Part shown: positions 1 to 9,215 of the stretch, one piece after another
Position numbering within the stretch: position 1 is the first letter of the stretch
How the letters are laid out: each line of letters begins with the position of its first letter
IMG/VR virus record: IMGVR_UViG_2703719355_000010
Reading direction: 5' to 3' (one strand)
Length of the DNA stretch: 9,215 nt
DNA from: a virus
Lineage: Duplodnaviria; Heunggongvirae; Uroviricota; Caudoviricetes
The notes under the pieces: model-generated
Seen by the model: only the letters and a program-made list of their open reading frames with translations
Told to the model about the DNA's origin: nothing
The model's database searches: none
Program-made: the position numbers and the translations under genes

Positions 1-65
1 CTCCTCCGGCAGAAGCAGAAAAAGCTTATTATGCTTCCATCGGAAACGATGATCTGGCAGCCTGA
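1..65 (+). CDS. IS3-family transposase (OrfB-like), C-terminal fragment; 5' part lies outside the window
   Basis: Frame starting at nt 3 translates to PPAEAEKAYYASIGNDDLAA, stop TGA at 63-65. This resembles the P-x-E-x-E C-terminal signature of IS3-family transposases and sits about 40 nt before the terminal inverted repeat. Confidence 0.5.
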   Translation, partial: PPAEAEKAYYASIGNDDLAA

Positions 66-82
66 GTTCACAGATAAAACAC

Positions 83-107
83 TCTCCAGGAAACCCGGGG
101 CGGTTCA
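83..107 (+). repeat. 25-bp terminal inverted repeat (IRR) of the IS element
   Basis: Sequence tctccaggaaacccggggcggttca; reverse complement TGAACCGCCCCGGGTTTCCTGGAGA. The identity between the two window ends stops exactly at position 107/108. Confidence 0.6.
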
Positions 108-197
108 GTCTGCGCCGCGCTGCGTGAGTTGAACAAGCACAGGGATATTGTACGACAGATTACTGATTCTTCCCGCCATGTTGCATCGGAAAAGTGA
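108..197 (+). pseudogene. 3' remnant (29 codons) of a gene interrupted by the IS; its position just upstream of the ren-like gene suggests the tail of a replication (P-like) gene
   Basis: Open frame begins at the IS boundary (VCAALRELNKHRDIVRQITDSSRHVASEK) and stops at TGA 195-197, 15 nt before the next gene's ATG. No start codon of its own. Identity is inferred from position only. Confidence 0.3.
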
Positions 198-212
198 TTG
201 CCGGAGGCGCTT

Positions 213-605
213 ATGGCAAAAGTATTTACACAAGAAGAGCGGGAAGAAGTGAAGGCGCGCATTGTGGAATTCGTGCGCCTGAGCGGACGAGAAACTTTTC
301 GACAACTGGCAGATAAAACGGGTGTCAGTAAGACCGCTATTCGTCGTTTATCTGGTGCGCTTGCGGCCAGTGGTGATGTCTGGCTCTCTGGTTGCGGGGT
401 ATTTCCATCAGAGCAGGCGTATCGCGTATGGCGTAAGACACCGGAGAAGGCTGCTGACCCGACACTGATTCGAAAGTTACCTGACGGAGAAATACGTCGT
501 TACAACAGACGGCAGAACATAATTTGTCGTGAGTGCCGCCAGAGCGAAGTTATGCAGCGTGTGCTGGCGTTCTATCGGGGAAACTTTCAGGAGGTGATGT
601 TGTGA
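213..605 (+). CDS. Ren-like protein, 130 aa (N-terminal HTH-like region, C-terminal ECRQS...RVLA motif resembling lambda Ren)
   Basis: ATG at 213 preceded by GGAGG at 203-207. C-terminal IICRECRQSEVMQRVLAFYRG resembles my recollection of lambda Ren (KECRQSAAMKRVLAVYG). Stop overlaps the start of the next gene. The ORF-track start at 198 is a TTG and less likely. Confidence 0.5.
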   Translation: MAKVFTQEEREEVKARIVEFVRLSGRETFRQLADKTGVSKTAIRRLSGALAASGDVWLSGCGVFPSEQAYRVWRKTPEKAADPTLIRKLPDGEIRRYNRRQNIICRECRQSEVMQRVLAFYRGNFQEVML

Positions 606-1075
606 GTGAGTCGGCTACCATTCTCGACATGTGCTGTGGCAGTCGCATGTTCTGGTTTGATAAGAATGACGAACGGGCGATATTTAGCGATATCAGAAAA
701 GAAGAGCACACATTGTGTGATGGACGACGCCTGATTATCAGTCCTGACCTGATAGCAGATTTTCGAGCATTACCATTTGCAGACGCATCGTTTCCGGTTG
801 TTGTATTCGACCCTCCGCATCTTGAGCGTGTTGGTGATAACGCCTGGATGGGAAAGAAATATGGACGGCTGAATAAAGATACCTGGCGAGATGATTTGCG
901 GCAGGGATTTAAAGAAGCCTTTCGTGTGTTGTGCCCACGCGGCGTTCTGATTTTTAAATGGAATGAAACGCAAATACCTGTTCGCCAGATATTGGTACTG
1001 ACCGACAGAAAACCTGTTATCGGTCAACGAACAGGAAAAAACGATAAAACCCACTGGATTATTTTTATGAAATAG
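602..1075 (+). CDS. Small phage-type DNA N6-adenine methyltransferase, 157 aa
   Basis: GTG at 602 with AGGAGG 8-13 nt upstream, overlapping the previous stop. SAM-binding-like LDMCCGSRMF near the N-terminus and catalytic motif VVFDPPH (DPPY/DPPH class). Size fits the small phage Dam-like family. Preferred over the upstream ATG at 533, which has no RBS and would overlap the Ren-like gene by about 70 nt. Confidence 0.7.
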   Translation: MSESATILDMCCGSRMFWFDKNDERAIFSDIRKEEHTLCDGRRLIISPDLIADFRALPFADASFPVVVFDPPHLERVGDNAWMGKKYGRLNKDTWRDDLRQGFKEAFRVLCPRGVLIFKWNETQIPVRQILVLTDRKPVIGQRTGKNDKTHWIIFMK

Positions 1076-1323
1076 GCATCCAGTGAGTAGGTTCGTAAGG
1101 TTACAGATGCGTATATCTGAATAATTAAATTCAGTTCTGTAAATAAAATTTAATCCTTAACCGGAGGGATTCCTGCACCCTCAGAACATCAGGAGACCGC
1201 CCGAAAGGGCGGTAATGAAAAATGGCTGAATGAACCAAATGGCTACAAAACACGATTACCGGAATTGAAACGGTAGTAGACGATAAATCGTTTGTATGTG
1301 ATGAAATAGTATTCAAAATCGAT

Positions 1324-1689
1324 GTGGTTAAAAACGTACTTACCGCATTTAAAGTCGCGCTGGTATCGCTGGAAGCCGAACCGGTGACATGGCGATATCG
1401 CTACGTGAGAAAAGGCGTTACGAACTTTCAGGAGAAGCCGTGGGTTGGTGACTGGAAATATGTACCGACAAAAGAGGATTGCAACGACAGGCCGAACTAT
1501 GAAATTCAGGCGTTATTCACGGCCCAGCCTGTGCCACTGACACCCGAAGGATTGATTAAAGCGGTGCGCTTCTATGAACAGGTTAAGAGTGAAAATCCGC
1601 CAGTCGAAACCGGAGCATGGAAAGACGCTGTTGACTGGGTGCTCAAAGAGGCTTGTCAGGCTGTAAACATTGGCATCAAAGGAGAGTGA
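1324..1689 (+). CDS. Hypothetical phage protein, 121 aa
   Basis: Uninterrupted ORF on the same strand as its neighbours, ending 1 nt before the next gene's ATG. Start is uncertain (GTG at 1324, no clear RBS). Shares the motif AL-x-SLEA-(D/E)-PV with the N-terminal region of the 1885..3306 protein. Confidence 0.45.
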   Translation: MVKNVLTAFKVALVSLEAEPVTWRYRYVRKGVTNFQEKPWVGDWKYVPTKEDCNDRPNYEIQALFTAQPVPLTPEGLIKAVRFYEQVKSENPPVETGAWKDAVDWVLKEACQAVNIGIKGE

Positions 1690-1690
1690 G

Positions 1691-1882
1691 ATGAACGGAC
1701 AAATCTCAATTGTTCGACCGGGAGCATGTGACGATTGCGAGATACGAATGATTATTCGTCTGGCGATGGGGAAAACAATAACTGCTCTCATTACTCCAGA
1801 AAATCTCGCATTAGCATTAACAGGAAAGTCAGACCTGCCAGTAGAGCTAAAGCTGCGAAATGTTGAGATTAAGGTGAAATAG
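1691..1882 (+). CDS. Hypothetical small protein, 63 aa
   Basis: ATG at 1691 with GGAG 6 nt upstream; stop is 2 nt before the next ATG (tight, operon-like packing). No family recognised. Confidence 0.5.
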   Translation: MNGQISIVRPGACDDCEIRMIIRLAMGKTITALITPENLALALTGKSDLPVELKLRNVEIKVK

Positions 1883-1884
1883 CT

Positions 1885-3306
1885 ATGACCACTATTACCA
1901 AAGAGCGACTGCTGACAATCAAGCAGTGGCGCGAAACATACGGACCTGGTAGCAACGTTGTACTGCCAGCAGAAGAAGCGGAAGAACTGGCACGGATTGC
2001 ACTGGCATCATTGGAAGCAGATCCAGTTAAACGAGTTAACTCAGATCAGATGCACCGAGTCTGCTTAGAAGCTAATCGCTATTTAGATAAATATGACGCG
2101 ATGGCGAAAGAGGTAAATAAGTTGCTTGGACGCATCGCCCCGCCAGCGCCAGTATTTAACGGCGAATACGGTGACGCATATCAGGGCGCTCGTGAAGACC
2201 TGTCCATCTGGAAACGGCGAGCGCTTGAAGCTGATGAGCACGTTCGGCGACTGGAGCAAATCAATGACCACATGGTGAAAGAGGCGCAGGGAGAATCACG
2301 CATGGGCGAGCCTGTAATACGTGAGCCAGCACCGGTAGTGCCTGAAGAAGCAACTCCGGAAAACGTAGAAATGCTCTCTGGCTATGTTTCAACGTACAAA
2401 TTAACCGATAGCGAGCGCGATATTGCTGCCGAAATATGGAACGCCTGCCGCGCCGCCATGCTTCAGTCAGGAAACTTTCGGGAAAACAAGAATTCGTCAA
2501 CCAATAATTTTCGGGAAATCGAGGAAACGTCAACCAACTATCCGGCAATTCCTAGTGAGGTGTTGTCCGCAATCCTGAAGGTTGCCAGGATTCGTGCCGA
2601 TTTCGATGATTTTGACGGTGACAGGCGAGGTATCGGTGATTGTCTGGATGAGGCTGAGCAAGAGCTTATCGTTACCATTAACAAATATGCCAGTCAGTTG
2701 GCAGCAGAACCGATAGCGACTAATGACGTTCGAGAGCAGCAGACAGCCGTTCCGCCAGTTCCGGAAATACAGGCTGATGTCGCGCAAGCAATTGAAAATC
2801 TCAAGCAGAAGCTAGTGGAATGTAATCGCTATAACTACTGCGCAGATGCAGTTAAAGGCGTAGAGGATGCCTGCCGTGCTGTTAGCTATAGCCAAGCCGA
2901 CAATCAACCAGCATCTGGCAACCAGGCTGCCGAATCCAATCGCGGTAATGAGTGGACTGGCAATCCTGATATTGATAACGCCATCATCATGCTCGACCGC
3001 ATAGATACGCTGGAAAATTGCGATGATGACCGTATTGAGGCTGTTAAGGCTGTTTTGCGTAGACTGGCTGGCAACTATCCGGTAACTCCGGATGGTTGGA
3101 TAAGCTGTAGTGAGCGAATGCCGAATACCAAAACAGCCGTTCTTGTTGCCGTGGAGTTTGACAGGAAAGGTGACTGGCGAATGAAATGGGCTACTTACAT
3201 CCCGGGGCATCCTGACGCTAATGATGGGTGGATAATTCCTGGTGCGTCGTGGAAACCGTCACACTGGATGCCGCTACCAGAACCGCCGCAGGAGGTGCGC
3301 CAATGA
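1885..3306 (+). CDS. Large phage protein, 473 aa, with C-terminal DUF551-like domain (Eaa/Ea22-type moron protein)
   Basis: Long ORF with ATG at 1885. C-terminal 70 aa (DGWISCSERMPNTKTAVLV...GWIIPGASWKPSHWMPLPEPP) resemble the DUF551 domain common at the C-terminus of enterobacterial prophage proteins. Contains an internal 33-nt imperfect tandem repeat. Confidence 0.65.
   Translation: MTTITKERLLTIKQWRETYGPGSNVVLPAEEAEELARIALASLEADPVKRVNSDQMHRVCLEANRYLDKYDAMAKEVNKLLGRIAPPAPVFNGEYGDAYQGAREDLSIWKRRALEADEHVRRLEQINDHMVKEAQGESRMGEPVIREPAPVVPEEATPENVEMLSGYVSTYKLTDSERDIAAEIWNACRAAMLQSGNFRENKNSSTNNFREIEETSTNYPAIPSEVLSAILKVARIRADFDDFDGDRRGIGDCLDEAEQELIVTINKYASQLAAEPIATNDVREQQTAVPPVPEIQADVAQAIENLKQKLVECNRYNYCADAVKGVEDACRAVSYSQADNQPASGNQAAESNRGNEWTGNPDIDNAIIMLDRIDTLENCDDDRIEAVKAVLRRLAGNYPVTPDGWISCSERMPNTKTAVLVAVEFDRKGDWRMKWATYIPGHPDANDGWIIPGASWKPSHWMPLPEPPQEVRQ
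2473..2538. repeat. In-frame imperfect tandem duplication (2 x 33 nt) inside the 473-aa gene
   Basis: aactttcgggaaaacaagaattcgtcaaccaat followed by aattttcgggaaatcgaggaaacgtcaaccaac, encoding NFRENKNSSTN / NFREIEETSTN. Confidence 0.6.
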
Positions 3307-3386
3307 TCTGGCCTGAAGCCTTTGCAATTACAGGCGTTGCTATAGCTATTGATTTTTTAGTATATGTTATTTGTCGGTGGGGGTAA
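3303..3386 (+). CDS. Candidate small hydrophobic peptide, 27 aa
   Basis: ATG at 3303 overlaps the stop of the upstream gene (ATGA), suggesting translational coupling. Product MIWPEAFAITGVAIAIDFLVYVICRWG is mostly one hydrophobic helix. Too short for the supplied ORF track. Confidence 0.3.
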   Translation: MIWPEAFAITGVAIAIDFLVYVICRWG

Positions 3387-3421
3387 AAACGTTCGCCGGG
3401 ATTCACACCAAAGGAGGGAAT

Positions 3422-3526
3422 ATGTCGGATGATATTTCACTGGCAATGGAAGGTGCGCTGGCTGTTATTGCTGTTGTGGGCGTTTACTGCCTGGTTGTGT
3501 TTTTGATGGATCGACTAGGGAACTGA
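3422..3526 (+). CDS. Candidate small membrane peptide, 34 aa
   Basis: Strong RBS AAGGAGGG 4 nt upstream of ATG 3422. Product MSDDISLAMEGALAVIAVVGVYCLVVFLMDRLGN has an acidic N-terminus and a single predicted transmembrane helix. Too short for the supplied ORF track. Confidence 0.45.
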   Translation: MSDDISLAMEGALAVIAVVGVYCLVVFLMDRLGN

Positions 3527-3535
3527 ATTCATTAC

Positions 3536-3555
3536 GATATGGGAATTCCCATATC
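3536..3555. promoter_or_regulatory. 20-bp perfect palindrome GATATGGGAATTCCCATATC; candidate operator for a dimeric DNA-binding protein
   Basis: Perfect dyad symmetry read directly from the sequence, about 35 bp upstream of the predicted hok-locus promoter. No U-tract on either strand, so not an intrinsic terminator. Confidence 0.4.
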
Positions 3556-3567
3556 GGGTAAAAACGG

Positions 3568-3596
3568 TTTGCGGTAAAGCGAGAGTTAAGTAGAAT
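3568..3596 (+). promoter_or_regulatory. Candidate promoter of the hok/mok mRNA (-10 TAGAAT at 3591-3596, weak -35 around 3568-3574)
   Basis: A -10 hexamer TAGAAT lies 5 nt before position 3601, where the sequence that base-pairs with the mRNA 3' end begins. Confidence 0.4.
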
Positions 3597-3714
3597 TGCT
3601 GCGGGTGCTTGAGGCTATCTGCCTCGGGCATGCCACCGTAAGGCAGACAGAGAAAAGCCCCAGTTAACATTACGCGTCCGGCAAGACGCTTAACATTAAT
3701 CTGAGGCCATATCT

Positions 3715-3927
3715 ATGACTTGCACATGTAGGTTAGCCTCTTACGTGCCGAAAGGCAAGGAGAAGCAGGCTATGAAGCAGCAAAAGGCGATGTTAATCGC
3801 CCTGATCGTCATCTGTTTAACCGTCATAGTGACGGCACTGGTAACGAGGAAAGACCTCTGCGAGGTACGAATCCGAACCGGTCAGACGGAGGTCGCTGTC
3901 TTCGTAGACTACGAATCTGAGAAGTAA
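3715..3927 (+). CDS. mok: Mok-like reading frame: in-frame N-terminal extension of hok (70 aa)
   Basis: ATG at 3715 in frame with hok, mirroring the mokC/hokC arrangement I recall, where the mok frame governs hok translation. Confidence 0.55.
   Translation: MTCTCRLASYVPKGKEKQAMKQQKAMLIALIVICLTVIVTALVTRKDLCEVRIRTGQTEVAVFVDYESEK
3772..3927 (+). CDS. hok: Hok/Gef-family type I toxin, 51 aa
   Basis: Product MKQQKAMLIALIVICLTVIVTALVTRKDLCEVRIRTGQTEVAVFVDYESEK is near-identical in pattern to HokC/Gef as I recall it (MKQHKAMIVALIVICITAVVAALVTRKDLCEVHIRTGQTEVAVF...). RBS AAGGAG is 9 nt upstream. The predicted mRNA 5' end (3601-3614) pairs with the 3' end (3977-3991), the fold-back arrangement typical of hok mRNAs. 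Confidence 0.85.
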   Translation: MKQQKAMLIALIVICLTVIVTALVTRKDLCEVRIRTGQTEVAVFVDYESEK

Positions 3928-3994
3928 GAGACCAGGCGGGGGAGTAATCTCCCGCCACCTCTGATGTGTCAGGCATCCTCAACGCACCCGCACT

Positions 3995-4020
3995 AAACCC
4001 GCTTCGGCGGGTTTTTTGTT
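3995..4020 (+). terminator. Intrinsic terminator at the end of the hok transcript
   Basis: Hairpin ACCCGC-TTCG-GCGGGT followed by TTTTTTGTT. Confidence 0.75.
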
Positions 4021-4202
4021 GCGTGCTGAATGCGCAGGGTGAAAAATAACCATATATTTGATTATATACACAACAAAAAATAAAAGTCATTGTACCTGCA
4101 CATTAAATAATCAAATATACAGCGTGAAATAAATATTTTTCAGATTAATATTTTTGTCTCTATGTGGATATAACCGTTTGTACTTATAAACTCGGAGGCA
4201 TC

Positions 4203-4415
4203 GTGGAAAAAATAAAGAAACTATTTAGTTGCAAATACGCAGTCATACGTCGTGATGACCTGTCAGTTATAGTCGAAATGGATTACTTCCCTGAAACCCC
4301 AAAATCAATGATGTATCGTAATGGTCGAAAGGCAATTTTTTTACCGATGAGGGTAAGTGACATTATGGGAAATGATAAACTGCTGGATGAATTGCGAGTC
4401 AGAGCATCCTGTTAG
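4203..4415 (+). CDS. Hypothetical protein, 70 aa, encoded in an AT-rich island (moron-like)
   Basis: GTG at 4203 with GGAGG 4 nt upstream. Preceded by about 180 bp of very AT-rich sequence directly after the hok terminator. No family recognised; start uncertain (track ORF begins at GTG 4164). Confidence 0.4.
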   Translation: MEKIKKLFSCKYAVIRRDDLSVIVEMDYFPETPKSMMYRNGRKAIFLPMRVSDIMGNDKLLDELRVRASC

Positions 4416-4486
4416 TATTGGCATTAATTCTGGTATACTACATAACGGGCTGAACACCCATTCTACTGCGCCAGCGGAGAACTACG

Positions 4487-5086
4487 ATGGCGCATATACA
4501 ACTGGTCAAACAAACCTCTTCCGGATTACTTCTCCCGGCGACACCGGAGAGTTGCGATTTTTTGCATCAAATCAAAATAGGCGAGTGGATACACGCAGAC
4601 TTTAAGCGTGTGCGTAACTACGCATTCCACAAGCGTTTTTTCAAACTCCTGCAACTGGGATTCGATTACTGGACTCCGGTCGGTGGGGCGATCACGCCTC
4701 GCGAACGAGAACTGCTGTCTGGTTTCGTTGATTACCTGTGCGAATCAGTTGGTCGGGAACACACGCCAGCCCTGAGTGATGCCGCAGAGCAATATCTGAA
4801 TACAGTTGCGACACGCAGAACCCGGGATACGGCATTGTTAAAGTCGTTTGAGGCTTTTCGCGAGTGGGTAACCATTCAGGCTGGATTTTACACCGAACAT
4901 TTTTATCCGGACGGTAGCCATGGGCGTCGGGCGAAATCCATCGCTTTTGCGAATATGGACGAAACCGAGTTTCAGCAGGTTTATAAATCTGTTCTGAATG
5001 TGCTGTGGAACTGGATTCTGTTCCGTAAATTTTCCTCTCCGGAACAAGTCGAAAATGTGGCCGCGCAGCTGCTGGAGTTTGCGTAA
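4487..5086 (+). CDS. Lambdoid nin-region protein, 199 aa (DUF1367-like)
   Basis: ATG at 4487; stop overlaps the next start (TAATG). Size and position immediately upstream of a YbcO-like gene and Q fit the DUF1367 family; assignment is by recollection and gene context. Confidence 0.6.
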   Translation: MAHIQLVKQTSSGLLLPATPESCDFLHQIKIGEWIHADFKRVRNYAFHKRFFKLLQLGFDYWTPVGGAITPRERELLSGFVDYLCESVGREHTPALSDAAEQYLNTVATRRTRDTALLKSFEAFREWVTIQAGFYTEHFYPDGSHGRRAKSIAFANMDETEFQQVYKSVLNVLWNWILFRKFSSPEQVENVAAQLLEFA

Positions 5087-5376
5087 TGGTGGATTTACGT
5101 AAAGCGGCGCGGGGGCAGATGTGCACCGTCAGAATTCCTGGCTACTGCAATCACGATCCGGAAACGTCTGTGCTGGCGCATTACCGACTGGCGGGAACGT
5201 GCGGAACAGCGATAAAGCCACACGATATGCAGGCAGCGATTGCCTGTAGCTCGTGCCATGATTTAATCGACGGGCGGGTAAAAACCGGCGATTACACCAA
5301 AGAAGAATTACGCCTGATGCATGCAGAAGGTGTTTTTCGCACACAAGAAATCTGGAGAAAGGAGGGATATTTATGA
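5086..5376 (+). CDS. YbcO-like protein, 96 aa (DUF1364, putative metal-binding nuclease)
   Basis: Product MVDLRKAARGQMCTVRIPGYCNHDPETSVLAHYRL...IACSSCHDLIDGR closely follows the pattern of DLP12 YbcO as I recall it (LRKAARG...C.VRIPG.CN..PETSVLAH.RL...IACS.CHD.ID), including the conserved Cys/His positions. Overlapping start and stop with both neighbours. Confidence 0.75.
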   Translation: MVDLRKAARGQMCTVRIPGYCNHDPETSVLAHYRLAGTCGTAIKPHDMQAAIACSSCHDLIDGRVKTGDYTKEELRLMHAEGVFRTQEIWRKEGYL

Positions 5377-5927
5377 TTTACCCAACGAATACAGGAAAAA
5401 GCGGAGAACACCTTCGTCTCACCACGCTGGAAAGTGTCTGGATTCAGGGAAAACTACGTATGTGGGGGCGCTGGTCGTATATTGGCGGCGGTAAGACGGG
5501 AAATATGTTTAACCAGTTGCTGACCTCTAAAAAGCTAACAAAAACGGCAATTAATGAGGCGCTCCGGAGGATGAAAAAAGCAGGTCTGGACAAACCTGAA
5601 CTTGAGGCTTTTTTGCGGGATATGATCAACGGCAAGCAAAAAAGCTGGCTGGTGCATTGTACTGATGCAGAGGCGTTATGCATTGATCGGGTGATTAGTG
5701 AAGTGCTGGCAGAACACCCAGGATTGATTTGTATCCTCCGGCAAAGATATGAAGGGCGGGGGATGAGTAAGCGCAAAATGGCTGAATTGCTAAATGATGC
5801 ACACCCTGAGTGGTGTTTTCGGACGTGCTGCAGTCGGGTAGATGTATGGCTAAATCTTGCTGAATATATGCTCTATCTGCCGATGCGTGATGCATTCTCT
5901 TCCGGGTATTTAAAAACTGTCTGTTGA
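5373..5927 (+). CDS. Putative late-gene antiterminator Q (non-lambda Q family), 184 aa
   Basis: ATG at 5373 with GGAGGG 6 nt upstream. Sits in the Q position: downstream of nin-type genes and immediately upstream of a strong promoter plus short-transcript terminator. An N-terminal W-G-x-W motif resembles what I recall of Q82/QuuD-type proteins. Family not verified. Confidence 0.55.
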   Translation: MIYPTNTGKSGEHLRLTTLESVWIQGKLRMWGRWSYIGGGKTGNMFNQLLTSKKLTKTAINEALRRMKKAGLDKPELEAFLRDMINGKQKSWLVHCTDAEALCIDRVISEVLAEHPGLICILRQRYEGRGMSKRKMAELLNDAHPEWCFRTCCSRVDVWLNLAEYMLYLPMRDAFSSGYLKTVC

Positions 5928-5953
5928 CTCAATCTGTTATCCGGGGCTATATT
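5924..5953 (+). promoter_or_regulatory. Candidate late promoter (PR'-like): -35 TTGACT at 5924-5929, 18-nt spacer, -10 TATATT at 5948-5953
   Basis: Near-consensus sigma-70 hexamers overlapping the Q stop codon, followed by a hairpin at 5961-5978 (CGCCAG-CAAAAT-CTGGCG) in the initially transcribed region, as expected around a Q-utilisation/pause site. Confidence 0.5.
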
Positions 5954-6015
5954 CCTCACGCGCCAGCAAAATCTGGCGTCGGGATTAGGAACCCCGGATA
6001 GAGACCGCGACAGAC

Positions 6016-6040
6016 ACACGCCGCGAGCGTGTTTTTTATT
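6016..6040 (+). terminator. tR'-like intrinsic terminator downstream of the late promoter
   Basis: Hairpin ACACGC-CGCGA-GCGTGT followed by TTTTTATT, about 60-80 nt downstream of the predicted start site, analogous to the lambda PR'-tR' short transcript. Confidence 0.55.
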
Positions 6041-6200
6041 GTCGTATGCACGCGCACATCTGAATTATGGTGGGGCGTATGGGGGAGCTGAAAAGCTCGC
6101 CGGTTGGTTTCCCGGTAGTTCCTAACCCTGTACGTCTCACCACCCGATGATTAGGAACCTGACGGTGGTGATGGTTTAGAAACCACCAGAGGGCGTCATT

Positions 6201-6782
6201 ATGACAACTCAAATTTCTGTTGAAACTCTCTCCCCGATCACCCATAACCAGATTCCTGTTATTACCACCGAACTTTTGGCGCAGTTGTACGGTGCTGGAG
6301 TTAAGAACATTCAAAATAACTACGCCAGAAATGCTGAGCGCTTTATTGAAGGAAAGCATTTTTTCAAAGTGGCTGGCGATGCCCTGAAAAATTTGCGGGT
6401 AGCTTTAAACTACTCACAAAATTTGCAACTATCTTTAAGAGGGTTACAAATTTCCCCGAAAGCCCGCTCCCTCATCCTCTGGACAGAACGCGGAGCAGCC
6501 CGTCATGCCAAAATGCTGGAAACCGATCAGGCGTGGGATGTGTTCGAAAAGCTGGAAGACTGCTATTTCAGACAAAAGGATCCGTCAGCGCCAGTTTCAT
6601 GCCAGAAAAGTTACGACACGCGAGTTCTCTGTTATCAGAGAGGCGGTGTCACTGTTTCCACAATTCAGTTACGGGATGATGATATTGTTATTTCCCTTGA
6701 GTCATGGCTGGAACTGGCGAGAGCCAATGGTTGGTTTGTTGTTCGCAGAGATAAACTGGTGGAAAGGTTGATGCAGCTTTAA
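6201..6782 (+). CDS. ORF6N-domain protein (KilA-N-related, antirepressor-like DNA-binding domain), 193 aa
   Basis: N-terminal LLAQLYGAGVKNIQNNYARNAERFIEGKHFFKV matches the ORF6N signature I recall (LAELYG...N.AVKRN.ERFPEDFMF). ATG at 6201 with a GAGGG RBS. Confidence 0.65.
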   Translation: MTTQISVETLSPITHNQIPVITTELLAQLYGAGVKNIQNNYARNAERFIEGKHFFKVAGDALKNLRVALNYSQNLQLSLRGLQISPKARSLILWTERGAARHAKMLETDQAWDVFEKLEDCYFRQKDPSAPVSCQKSYDTRVLCYQRGGVTVSTIQLRDDDIVISLESWLELARANGWFVVRRDKLVERLMQL

Positions 6783-6879
6783 AAAAGTTCTTGCATTTTT
6801 GCACATAAACTGCTTCAATTCCTGTATGCTTCGCAAAGCTGTATCGCGAGGCGAAACGCAAGTTTTTTTCGCACAAGGA

Positions 6880-6902
6880 AGCCACCGGAAGGTGGTTTTT
6901 TT
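6880..6902 (+). terminator. Intrinsic terminator after the ORF6N gene
   Basis: Hairpin CCACC-GGAA-GGTGG followed by seven T residues. Confidence 0.65.
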
Positions 6903-7025
6903 GTGTCCGTAATATACAGCAGCGCAATAAATTCGCTGGTGGTTATTAATACCGTTCTTTCAGCTTGCTGGCTTTTTCGACAAGAGTTATTGGTATGTCA
7001 CGTTAACCGGAAAGGGTAAAAAGAC

Positions 7026-7223
7026 ATGCTGAAACAGCAGGATATGACAGAAACCGCCAGAGTTGTGTTTGATGAATTAAGCGTTACCGAACCGGCGACA
7101 GTCGGGGAGATTGCGCAGAATACTTACCTTTCACGCGAACGCTGCCAGTTAATACTGACCCAGCTGGTTATGGCGGGTCTGGCAGACTATCAGTGCGGTT
7201 GTTACAGACGCATTCAGTCCTGA
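7026..7223 (+). CDS. Small winged-helix regulatory protein, 65 aa (PapI/FaeA-like)
   Basis: TVGEIAQNTYLSRERCQLILTQLVMAGLA resembles the PapI/FaeA pattern I recall (TAEIAEAL.VT.YQAR.YLL.LEKAG). Start could be ATG 7026 or the internal ATG at 7041. Confidence 0.45.
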   Translation: MLKQQDMTETARVVFDELSVTEPATVGEIAQNTYLSRERCQLILTQLVMAGLADYQCGCYRRIQS

Positions 7224-7256
7224 AGGCTTTTTATTTGTGGTAAATGGGCGGCTGGT

Positions 7257-7265
7257 GGGGGGGGG
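7257..7265. repeat. Homopolymeric G9 tract in the intergenic region upstream of the AraC-family gene
   Basis: Nine consecutive G residues read directly, about 30 bp upstream of a candidate promoter (TTGATG at 7294-7299, TATAAT at 7319-7324). Confidence 0.9.
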
Positions 7266-7359
7266 CGGCACCTGTCAGTCCTTTGCTTATGTGTTGATGA
7301 TAATTTACCTTTTGGGGCTATAATTGAGCTAACCAATTGCTAATGAAAGTAAAATTATA

Positions 7360-8073
7360 ATGGCTGTTGTCTGTTCAGTTATCATGGTTTGCTCCCCAAT
7401 TAATATTTTTCTTGAAAAGGATACGTTGTCACTTAAGCCAGGCTCAGTCGTTCTGGCCACCAAATGCATCAGGGAGCTTTTCCTTATGCATTATGGCAAA
7501 GTTAAAATTGTCGATATAAGCGAATCCGTCGTAAGTCAATATCTGGAAAGTCAGCATAAGCTGACGAGGACTCGTCTGACTGACATTCCGCTTTACCTGT
7601 TGCTGGAACCCAACAATCCTGCGTTGGCTGCGGCTTTAATTACCAGCCAGGGATTTTCCGGAGAGGTCACGGATATGTTTCTTATGATGGCCTGCCTGTC
7701 TCTGTTTGAAACAGATGAACGGATGTCATTGTTTTTAAGTGGATGTTTATCCAGCATAAGTGCCAAAGTCAGGGCGATAATTCAGACAGATATATCAGCA
7801 AGCTGGACGCTTGGTGCGATTGCTCTACAGTTGCATATGAGTGAGAGTTTGTTAAAGACAAAACTGAAAAATGAAGGGGGCATGTTCAGTCGCTTGTTGC
7901 TGGAAGAGCGGATGCGTGTTGCTGTAAATATGTTATGTTCCCGACATGGATATGGACAGGCTGTAGCAGAAAAATGCGGTTATTCAAGCAGGTCCTACTT
8001 TATTTCTGTATTTCACCGCTATTATGGCTTCCCGCCAGACAGATATGTATCCAGGCAAGGGCTTGATTATTGA
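7360..8073 (+). CDS. AraC/XylS-family transcriptional regulator, 237 aa (prophage-encoded; PatE/Psr-like class)
   Basis: The C-terminal 100 aa carry the tandem HTH signature of the AraC family (...SRSYFISVFHRYYGFPPDRY). Start codon is uncertain: ATG 7360, 7387 and 7486 are all in frame and none has a strong RBS. Confidence 0.8.
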   Translation: MAVVCSVIMVCSPINIFLEKDTLSLKPGSVVLATKCIRELFLMHYGKVKIVDISESVVSQYLESQHKLTRTRLTDIPLYLLLEPNNPALAAALITSQGFSGEVTDMFLMMACLSLFETDERMSLFLSGCLSSISAKVRAIIQTDISASWTLGAIALQLHMSESLLKTKLKNEGGMFSRLLLEERMRVAVNMLCSRHGYGQAVAEKCGYSSRSYFISVFHRYYGFPPDRYVSRQGLDY

Positions 8074-8101
8074 TTTTCATCTGATTATTATTTTTTGGCT
8101 C

Positions 8102-8177
8102 GGCCCTTTAGCTCAGTGGTGAGAGCGAGCGACTCATAATCGCCAGGTCGCTGGTTCAAATCCAGCAAGGGCCACCA
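8102..8177 (+). tRNA. tRNA with anticodon CAU; sequence pattern of tRNA-Ile2 (lysidine type, ileX-like) rather than tRNA-Met
   Basis: Cloverleaf folded by hand: acceptor GGCCCTT/AAGGGCC, D-stem GCTC/GAGC, anticodon loop CTCATAA, T-loop TTCAAAT, encoded CCA. Close to my recollection of E. coli ileX. Confidence 0.8.
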
Positions 8178-8178
8178 A

Positions 8179-8255
8179 CCGCCACTAGCTCATCAGGAAA
8201 GAGCGTCAACCCTTTAAGTTGAGTGTGCGAGGTTCGAGTCCCCGGTGGCGGTCCA
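8179..8255 (+). tRNA. Atypical tRNA or tRNA-like gene; anticodon loop CCTTTAA (nominal anticodon UUU, Lys) with C instead of U at position 33 and an unusual D-loop
   Basis: 7-bp acceptor stem CCGCCAC/GTGGCGG, T-loop TTCGAGT, encoded CCA, 5-bp anticodon stem TCAAC/GTTGA. Deviations: 5' C, D-loop ATCAGGAAA, C33, one A-C mismatch in the T-stem. May be a degenerate or specialised tRNA. Confidence 0.5.
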
Positions 8256-8257
8256 GT

Positions 8258-8333
<76 letters not shown>

Positions 8334-8336
8334 TAT

Positions 8337-8411
<75 letters not shown>

Positions 8412-8417
8412 GTTAGA

Positions 8418-8463
8418 GTCTTTCAGTCTGCGATGATGGGAAATCCCGGAGTGACTGAAAGAC
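8418..8463 (+). repeat. Perfect 11-bp inverted repeat (GTCTTTCAGTC / GACTGAAAGAC) with a 24-nt loop, immediately after the tRNA array
   Basis: Read directly; no U-tract follows, so not a canonical terminator. Possible processing, structural or binding site. Confidence 0.5.
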
Positions 8464-8470
8464 GTTTAGG

Positions 8471-8543
8471 TTATGAATGATCGCTTTTTTTTGCAAAATT
8501 GCTGTGCAGAAATACTAACCTTCGGGCAGGCGATCATTCATAA
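8471..8543 (+). repeat. Perfect 14-bp inverted repeat (TTATGAATGATCGC / GCGATCATTCATAA) separated by 45 nt
   Basis: Read directly; the loop contains a T8 run. Could form a long stem-loop in RNA or be a protein-recognition or recombination site. Confidence 0.5.
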
Positions 8544-8618
8544 GCACTCTGCTTTTATTCCGATTAACTGTGGGTGGTTTGTTGGATAGAGTGCTTTCCT
8601 GACTGTAGATCCAATTTC

Positions 8619-8644
8619 GCCCGCTTTTGCGGGCTTTTCTTTTC
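8619..8644 (+). terminator. Intrinsic terminator upstream of the holin gene
   Basis: Hairpin GCCCGC-TTTT-GCGGGC followed by TTTTCTTTTC. Confidence 0.7.
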
Positions 8645-8703
8645 AAATCCCTTTCATCTCTCAGTGTAAAACTACGCCATCCGTTATTTGCGGAGGTGAG
8701 GCT

Positions 8704-8919
8704 ATGAAATCCATGGACAAAATTTCAACGGGCATTGCCTACGGCACCTCCGCAGGCAGTGCTGGCTACTGGTTTTTACAGTGGCTTGATCAAGTCAGTC
8801 CGTCACAGTGGGCTGCGATTGGTGTACTGGGGAGTCTGATTCTGGGCTTCCTGACTTATCTGACAAATCTGTACTTCAAAATCAGAGAAGACAAGCGTAA
8901 GGCTGCACGGGGAGAGTAA
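8704..8919 (+). CDS. S: Class II holin / pinholin of the phage 21 S type (S21-like), 71 aa, with dual-start motif
   Basis: Product [71 protein letters not shown] matches my recollection of S21 almost residue for residue, including the Met1/Met4 dual start (MKSM). GGAGG RBS 7 nt upstream. Confidence 0.85.
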
Positions 8920-8923
8920 TTCA

Positions 8924-9148
8924 ATGACTCAAAACTATGAAGTGATTGTGAAAGGGATCCGCAATTTTGAGAATAAAGTTACGGTAACTTTAGCGTTACG
9001 GGACAAAAAACGCTTTGACGGTGAAATTTTTGACCTGGACATCTCGCTGGACCGTGTTGAAGGTGCCGCGCTGGAGTTTTATGAGGCAGCAGCCAGAAGG
9101 AGCATCAGTGAACCGCCCCGGGTTTCCTGGAGAGTGTTTTATCTGTGA
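8924..9148 (+). pseudogene. Gene of unknown function truncated by the right-hand IS; the first 61 codons are native and the last 13 (EPPRVSWRVFYL plus stop) come from the IS end
   Basis: ATG 8924 with GGAGAG RBS. The reading frame crosses the IS boundary at 9109 and terminates inside the IS terminal repeat. The native N-terminus (MTQNYEVIVKGIRNFENKVTVTLALRDKKRF...) is not a recognisable endolysin. Confidence 0.45.
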
Positions 9149-9215
9149 ACTCAGGCTGCCAGATCATCGTTTCCGATGGAAGCATAATAAGCTTTTTCTG
9201 CTTCTGCCGGAGGAG
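9109..9215 (-). mobile_element. Right-end fragment of a second copy of the same IS3-family element in inverted orientation; the element continues to the right of the window
   Basis: Exact reverse complement of 1..107; begins at 9109 with TGAACCGCCCCGGGTTTCCTGGAGA. Confidence 0.7.
9151..9215 (-). CDS. IS3-family transposase C-terminal fragment, partial (mirror of 1..65)
   Basis: Same frame as the left copy read on the minus strand; stop codon at 9151-9153. Confidence 0.5.
   Translation of the reverse strand, partial: PPAEAEKAYYASIGNDDLAA

Follow-up and report, generated by a model that had tools for sequence, protein, structure and literature searches.

An S21-type holin gene in an IS629/IS1203-broken lysis cassette of a defective lambdoid prophage

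When a phage 21-type pinholin gene stands near the end of a contig with no endolysin gene beside it, does the rest of the lysis cassette lie out of sight, has it been lost, or has the holin been kept as a membrane-depolarizing toxin? This question is raised by a 9215-bp stretch of DNA (hereafter the window), which is the entire contig CYGN01000105.1 of the short-read draft assembly GCA_001286505.1. A sequence-only reading of the window had called the gene an S21-type pinholin without an endolysin partner, and the features of the holin gene itself are as follows.

8692..8701, plus strand: Shine-Dalgarno-like GGAGGTGAGG, 2 nt 5′ of the holin start codon, read from the sequence
8704..8919, plus strand: S21-type class II holin (pinholin) gene, from Pfam PF04971, identity to phage 21 S and hydropathy
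8704, plus strand: start of the 71-codon antiholin form
8713, plus strand: start of the 68-codon holin form, at Met4

The ORF encodes 71 amino acids and matched PF04971, "Bacteriophage P21 holin S", over positions 1-63 of a 64-position profile (E = 1.4e-35; score 121.5 bits, cut-off 26), and the protein also matched PHROG holin families. Homologues were detected by tblastn in 438 of 50,697 phage records, phage 21 included. The protein is identical to S of Escherichia phage 21 (OL657228.1) at 69 of 71 residues (97.2%), the differences being V46I and R64K, and residues 1-45, with an identical TMD1, are those of S21. At the DNA level, homology to phage 21 starts at about position 8670 and extends over 251 nt with 83.7% identity. 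The dual start Met1-Lys-Ser-Met4 is kept as in phage 21, whose record annotates both products, the antiholin S21-71 and the pinholin S21-68. The two-TMD layout is also shared: the 15-residue Kyte-Doolittle maximum was 0.5 for TMD1 and 2.1 for TMD2, which gives the weakly hydrophobic, Gly/Ala/Ser-rich, SAR-like first segment and the strongly hydrophobic second segment of a class II holin. The Pfam match, the identity to S, the dual start and the membrane layout together bear out the pinholin call. S21 forms heptameric pinholes of ~2 nm and depolarizes the membrane, and it is established that without an endolysin it depolarizes and kills cells with no lysis (review PMC9636201). Because the protein encoded here is 97% identical to S21, for which pinholes have been shown, it should, if expressed, likewise assemble ~2-nm heptameric pinholes that dissipate the proton motive force.

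The gene that follows the holin breaks off at an insertion sequence (IS).

8924..9108, plus strand: 5′ fragment of a ydfR/DUF1327 gene, 61 full codons, from Pfam PF07041 and identity to strain SLK172

This fragment had been described as belonging to an unrelated gene, but it matched DUF1327/YdfR, a family resident in this variant of the cassette (PF07041, E = 1.6e-30, profile positions 1-60 of 93), and all 61 residues are identical to those of the 104-aa YdfR protein of SLK172. The earlier count of 61 native and 13 IS-encoded codons was exact: the last native base is 9108, codon 62 spans the junction, and 12 further codons and the stop come from the IS, so that the chimeric ORF (8924-9148; 74 aa) runs on in IS sequence to 9148. 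The native sequence ends with ...GAGCATCAG (CATCAG directly before the IS), whereas uninterrupted ydfR reads GAGCATCAGACAGG across the region; beyond the CAG of the window junction, intact ydfR continues with ACAGGTCTTCC, and the CAG with the remaining ydfR reads CAGACAGGTCTTCCTGGATG. The same fragment is annotated by PGAP as a pseudogene in NZ_CP148401.1, and the ydfR copy here is, judged from its sequence, a truncated pseudogene. In a collection of 15 billion proteins, the chimeric 74-aa protein was found on one contig only, the window. K-12 YdfR is reported to bind the catalytic N-terminal half of RNase E through its first 72 residues, and possibly RNA too (PMC13232886); the truncated gene keeps 61 of these 72 residues, fused to the 13 IS-encoded ones.

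Intact cassettes of the same variant show what normally follows. In the SLK172 prophage, four tRNA genes precede a holin that is 100% identical at the protein level, and then come YdfR (104 aa), a lysozyme (177 aa) and Rz. The isolated phage PhiR47_1 shows the same S-ydfR-lysozyme-Rz/Rz1 arrangement, with 98% DNA identity between its tRNA-holin-ydfR module and window positions 8101-9108. In phage mEp460, ydfR also lies between S and R, and YdfR homologues were found in 101 phage records. The Qin prophage of K-12 presumably carries the same kind of cassette, essQ-ydfR-rrrQ-rzpQ. Ala and Gly are abundant in the N-terminal segment of the partner lysozyme, which shares 34% identity with the SAR endolysin of phage 21. 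The window shares with the SLK172, PhiR47_1 and mEp460 cassettes the same four upstream tRNA genes and, with SLK172, an identical holin and first 61 YdfR residues; it differs in that those cassettes go on to the full 104-aa YdfR, the 177-aa lysozyme and a 155-aa Rz, whereas the window stops at ydfR codon 62. From these arrangements, ydfR can be regarded as a normal resident of this cassette type, found between S and R in intact prophages and isolated phages alike, and the original cassette here would have been S21-type pinholin, ydfR, SAR-type lysozyme and Rz/Rz1.

The expectation that an endolysin gene directly follows the pinholin therefore holds for phage 21, whose SAR endolysin gene overlaps the end of S. 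It does not apply to this variant, in which ydfR normally stands between the two genes. Phage 21 and the window are alike in having tRNA genes and a terminator upstream of S and downstream of the Q gene. They differ further in the endolysin, which in the intact relatives of the window is the 177-aa lysozyme, only 34% identical to R21, and in the Q gene, which here is of the DUF1133/AntQ type and not phage 21 Q.

No lysozyme or Rz Pfam family was found among the 16 called genes of the window, and a six-frame tblastn of the window with five endolysins of four types and four Rz/Rz1 proteins gave noise only, the best match (E = 0.008) covering 36 aa of a non-coding stretch. Within the window, no SAR endolysin gene of the same operon and no Rz/Rz1 spanin genes lie 3′ of the holin. 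Both searches thus agree with the earlier statement that the window has no lysozyme-like gene. The two ends of the contig, however, limit what this absence means.

1..107, plus strand (forward): IS629/IS1203 right end, 107 bp, in the 3′ end of a DUF1627 gene; the contig begins here
9109..9215, minus strand (reverse orientation): IS629/IS1203 right (orfB-distal) end, 107 bp; the contig stops here

The two terminal stretches, 1-107 and 9109-9215, are exact reverse complements of one another, and both are 100% identical to the right end of IS1203 in NZ_CP148401.1, where the element is complete (1310 bp) and its transposase frameshifted. The IS629/IS1203 terminal sequence is TGAACCGCCCCGG..., and the window reads TGAACCGCCCCGGG... 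from 9109; the left-end sequence of IS629 is ...GGGGCGGTTCA. Because both contig ends are the same end of a multicopy IS, the assembly breaks off in repeated sequence and gives no view of the DNA further out. The absence of an endolysin from the window is partly an assembly boundary.

On the left, the IS is followed directly by GTCTGCGCC in the DUF1627 gene. At this exact site, the unrelated genome FSIS11705876 has a simple IS insertion in which GTC is duplicated (extracted locus 10762-12075); in a junction-specific search, it was the only one of 5426 complete genomes with an IS at this position. An assembly artefact, in which the holin-ydfR-IS join would be chimeric and ydfR really intact in the strain, is extremely improbable. 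Both contig ends do lie in a 107-bp repeat, a typical place for assembler errors, but a fixed-length run into a repeat is normal de Bruijn graph behavior and not a chimera; moreover, the left junction is reproduced in FSIS11705876, and IS1203 occupies the same place in ydfR in an independent complete genome.

That genome, Z1323CEC0019 (NZ_CP148401.1), is the sole one of 5426 complete E. coli genomes to carry the segment nearly unchanged, with 12 differences from window positions 108-9215 in 9.1 kb (99.9% identity). It was also the only one of the 5426 with an IS at the right-hand ydfR site in the junction-specific search, and the two window junctions occurred together in none. Its ydfR carries a 1310-bp IS1203 in the same orientation as the window IS. 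The native sequence there ends with ...GAGCATCAGAC (CATCAGAC directly before the IS), 2 bp further into ydfR than in the window; the positions compared are 9106-9109 of the window and 10007-10012 of the extracted Z1323CEC0019 locus. The far side of the IS1203 abuts ATCCTCAGCC..., which aligns to nt 303 of the 468-nt Rz gene, ATCCTCAGCCGAAGCC being sequence inside Rz. Only nt 303-468 of Rz (the last 166 nt) are left. Missing are the remainder of ydfR, the lysozyme gene in its entirety and ~100 codons from the start of Rz, and Rz1 is left without its signal peptide and lipobox Cys. The deletion was sized against the Rz of EC6622 and CB9615. SLK172 was rejected as a template, since it carries another Rz allele, which the remnant does not match in DNA. 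The IS is flanked by CAGAC and ATCCTC, with no target-site duplication; 3-bp target duplications, which denote simple insertions, were found at five of the seven IS629 copies examined. The Z1323CEC0019 junction thus bears the mark of a deletion associated with the IS, or of two IS copies having recombined.

The Z1323CEC0019 prophage lies at the Rac attachment site, has at least four IS1203 copies and is without portal, capsid and tail-shaft genes. Three DUF1076 genes, which we take to be NleG-like effector genes, lie 3′ of its tail-fibre genes (NZ_CP148401.1 2916945-2918945). It looks like a decaying, effector-carrying defective remnant at the Rac site.

A deletion is proposed beyond the window IS as well, because the only complete genome with the same prophage shows it. 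The window holds the front of a lambdoid-prophage lysis cassette that an IS629/IS1203 copy has broken within ydfR at codon 62. On this comparison, the DNA beyond the IS is most likely deleted, and on balance we favor loss of the endolysin from this genome. An IS-associated deletion would have removed the remainder of ydfR, all of the lysozyme gene and, from the 5′ side, two-thirds of Rz/Rz1. Two observations speak against a deletion shared with Z1323CEC0019: the window junction is 2 bp short of that of Z1323CEC0019, and the window has an extra IS629 at its left end. The left IS is absent from Z1323CEC0019, so the two genomes differ in IS history. The 2-bp offset could come from two independent insertions or from one event followed by a 2-bp loss; if the insertions were independent, the Z1323CEC0019 deletion need not apply to the window genome. 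Inversion between inverted IS copies was rejected as a cause of the offset, since recombination within the IS leaves the junctions unchanged. The left DUF1627 site of the window and FSIS11705876 and the ydfR site of Z1323CEC0019 share the target T-GTC-TG, which hints at a target preference of IS629.

The main alternative is a simple insertion, in which IS629 only interrupts ydfR, and the 3′ part of ydfR, the SAR-type lysozyme gene and Rz/Rz1 remain intact in the same orientation beyond a 1.3-kb IS. Of the cassette genes, only ydfR would then be incomplete, with downstream expression possibly lowered by polarity. EPSSH018 has exactly such an arrangement: its ydfR is cut by IS629 with a TAC duplication, and the lysozyme and Rz genes are intact beyond it. 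The 2-bp offset suggests an independent event, most of the IS629 copies examined (5/7) have 3-bp duplications, and the hit on the left IS site in the unrelated FSIS11705876 suggests insertion hot spots. Against this, the nearest relative of the same prophage has a deletion that starts no more than 2 bp away, and no contig with the other IS junction of the source genome was retrieved by protein look-ups. Exact look-ups with the 50-aa ORF 3′ of the Z1323CEC0019 IS and with the 44-aa Rz remnant gave only P22-like prophages with intact cassettes or contigs that start inside a normal Rz, and a homology search with the 50-aa ORF gave no exact representative. We consider a simple insertion a realistic possibility, though a somewhat doubtful one. 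Whether the cassette lies beyond the IS or was lost was thus the right question to ask of the sequence: Z1323CEC0019 favors loss, EPSSH018 provides the intact lysozyme and Rz beyond an IS that had been named as the contrary outcome, and we infer the state of the source genome from these relatives.

Deletion of the DNA beyond the IS, the reading we prefer, would fit what is known of the element. IS629 is found mainly in prophages (62% in O157 genomes) and causes deletions (PMC3271280). The window resembles IS629/IS1203-mediated prophage decay in EHEC/EPEC-type E. coli in the preference for prophages and in the combination of insertions and adjacent deletions (PMC3271280); there is no difference of substance, and the window is one further instance. 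The closest case, the Z1323CEC0019 prophage, has the same segment with IS1203 in ydfR in the same orientation, and differs in the junction 2 bp further in, the lack of the left IS and the known deletion of the lysozyme gene beyond the IS. IS629-type (IS3-family) copies lie in or beside the lysis cassette in RM9872, EPSSH018, 14EC007 and FSIS11705876, and IS hits on this cassette are recurrent. In EPSSH018, an IS3-family element also lies inside the S21-type holin gene itself (extracted locus 3330-4881), and in O145 RM9872 one lies inside the lysozyme gene with an AGG duplication (extracted locus 19681-21516). The O145 genomes that match window positions 107-9215 were set aside as carriers of the window junctions, their IS copies being at other positions.

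Whether the holin would be made at all depends on the region upstream, in which the following features were found.

5373..5927, plus strand: Q-like late antiterminator gene, DUF1133/AntQ type, from Pfam and PHROG
5924..6147, plus strand: promoter-like site, isrK sRNA with terminator and C4-type antisense RNA, from a promoter/terminator scan and Rfam
5960..6037: isrK sRNA with terminator (Rfam, 69 bits)
6063..6147: C4-type antisense RNA (Rfam C4, 67 bits)
8102..8411, plus strand: four phage tRNA genes (CAU Met/Ile2, Lys-UUU, Thr-UGU, Gly-UCC), from ARAGORN and Rfam
8616..8644, plus strand: intrinsic-terminator-like hairpin GCCCGC-TTTT-GCGGGC with a T run, 60 nt 5′ of the holin gene, from a consensus scan

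The Q-like gene matched Pfam DUF1133 (E = 1e-106), Phage_antitermQ (27.5 bits) and PHROG 753, "anti-termination protein Q-like" (E = 2e-80). Downstream of it, Rfam detected isrK, C4 and also c4-a1b1 (48 bits), all above the gathering score; C4 antisense RNA targets were placed by Rfam at 5947-6000. A plain pR′/tR′ after the Q-like gene was considered and set aside in favor of the isrK/C4 module, which is the more specific assignment and is functionally compatible with it. An ORF6N (antirepressor-like) gene lies 3′ of this module at 6201-6782. The layout of the Q-like gene, isrK, C4 and ORF6N is the same as that of the Gifsy-1 antQ-isrK-anrP toxic-antiterminator locus (PMC4825925), and isrK/C4/ORF6N resembles in layout the c4-ant immunity module of P1, here in an E. 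coli prophage. Between isrK/C4 and the holin come genes for the ORF6N protein, a small HTH protein and an AraC-type regulator, then the four tRNA genes and the strong terminator-like hairpin; the tRNA genes form one module with the holin and ydfR. The AraC-family gene (7360-8073; 237 aa), lying between the Q-like gene and the tRNA genes, is in the position of a late-operon moron; its protein was found on 46 contigs and probably resembles the prophage-encoded AraC-like regulators of EHEC.

This layout reads as that of a lambdoid late operon, in which 5924-6147 is the probable start of a Q-dependent late transcript that reaches the holin. Because a Q-like gene, an isrK/pR′-like promoter and terminators lie upstream, expression of the holin is likely to be Q-dependent, and the gene would be reached only by antiterminated transcription, that is, when the Q-like antiterminator carries polymerase from the isrK/pR′-like promoter through the intervening terminators. 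The holin ORF is intact, but with the DNA beyond the IS deleted it would have no partner in cis. Once made, the protein would act as S21 does: its small heptameric pinholes would dissipate the proton motive force, an effect that alone would be lethal but non-lytic. The protein could still release SAR endolysins from other co-induced prophages and so contribute to lysis.

Two other loci of the window were noted in passing. A hok/sok type I toxin-antitoxin locus lies at 3603-3927 (Rfam sok, 110 bits; Hok/Gef gene at 3772-3927), and of the 12 differences that separate the window from Z1323CEC0019, five fall together at 3718-3727, within the sok/hok leader overlap. A 473-aa ORF with a C-terminal DUF551 domain (1885-3306) is intact in the window, whereas PGAP annotates it as three fragments/pseudogenes in Z1323CEC0019 despite a single base difference (2958).

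The sequence-only reading had also suggested that an orphan pinholin retained under Q-dependent control could act as a depolarizing toxin. In its fullest form, this would be a domesticated orphan pinholin that has lost its endolysin and spanins and, under AntQ/IsrK-type late control, serves as a non-lytic depolarizing suicide or abortive-infection effector. The intact holin ORF, ribosome-binding site and upstream Q-like antiterminator gene are in keeping with such a role, as is the ability of pinholins to depolarize and kill without an endolysin (PMC9636201). However, the holin is 100% identical to the alleles of intact cassettes, which leaves no time for, and no sign of, separate selection. 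The junction is found on a single contig of one draft assembly, with a near-identical junction in a single one of the 5426 complete genomes, and no dedicated immunity or regulator gene is associated with the holin. The related prophage, moreover, is IS-ridden, decaying through several IS events and without head/tail genes. We regard a retained toxin as very unlikely, the intact ORF being all that was found to speak for it.

The feature is instead of a known kind: the S21-type holin belongs to the lysis cassette of a defective lambdoid prophage, and this cassette has been broken by IS629 in the course of routine decay. The simplest reading is a recent, neutral or mildly beneficial inactivation of the prophage lysis module, in which the holin has been orphaned recently as a side effect of prophage decay and not through selection for a toxin function. 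The importance of the locus is small beyond annotation, for which it shows that when an endolysin is "missing" beside a holin in a draft contig, the best explanation is a contig end set by an IS together with IS-mediated prophage decay. If the lysozyme gene has been deleted here, the prophage would be unable to lyse its host alone, and this loss, if true, would add to the evidence that the prophage is a defective remnant that carries effectors, as opposed to an inducible phage.
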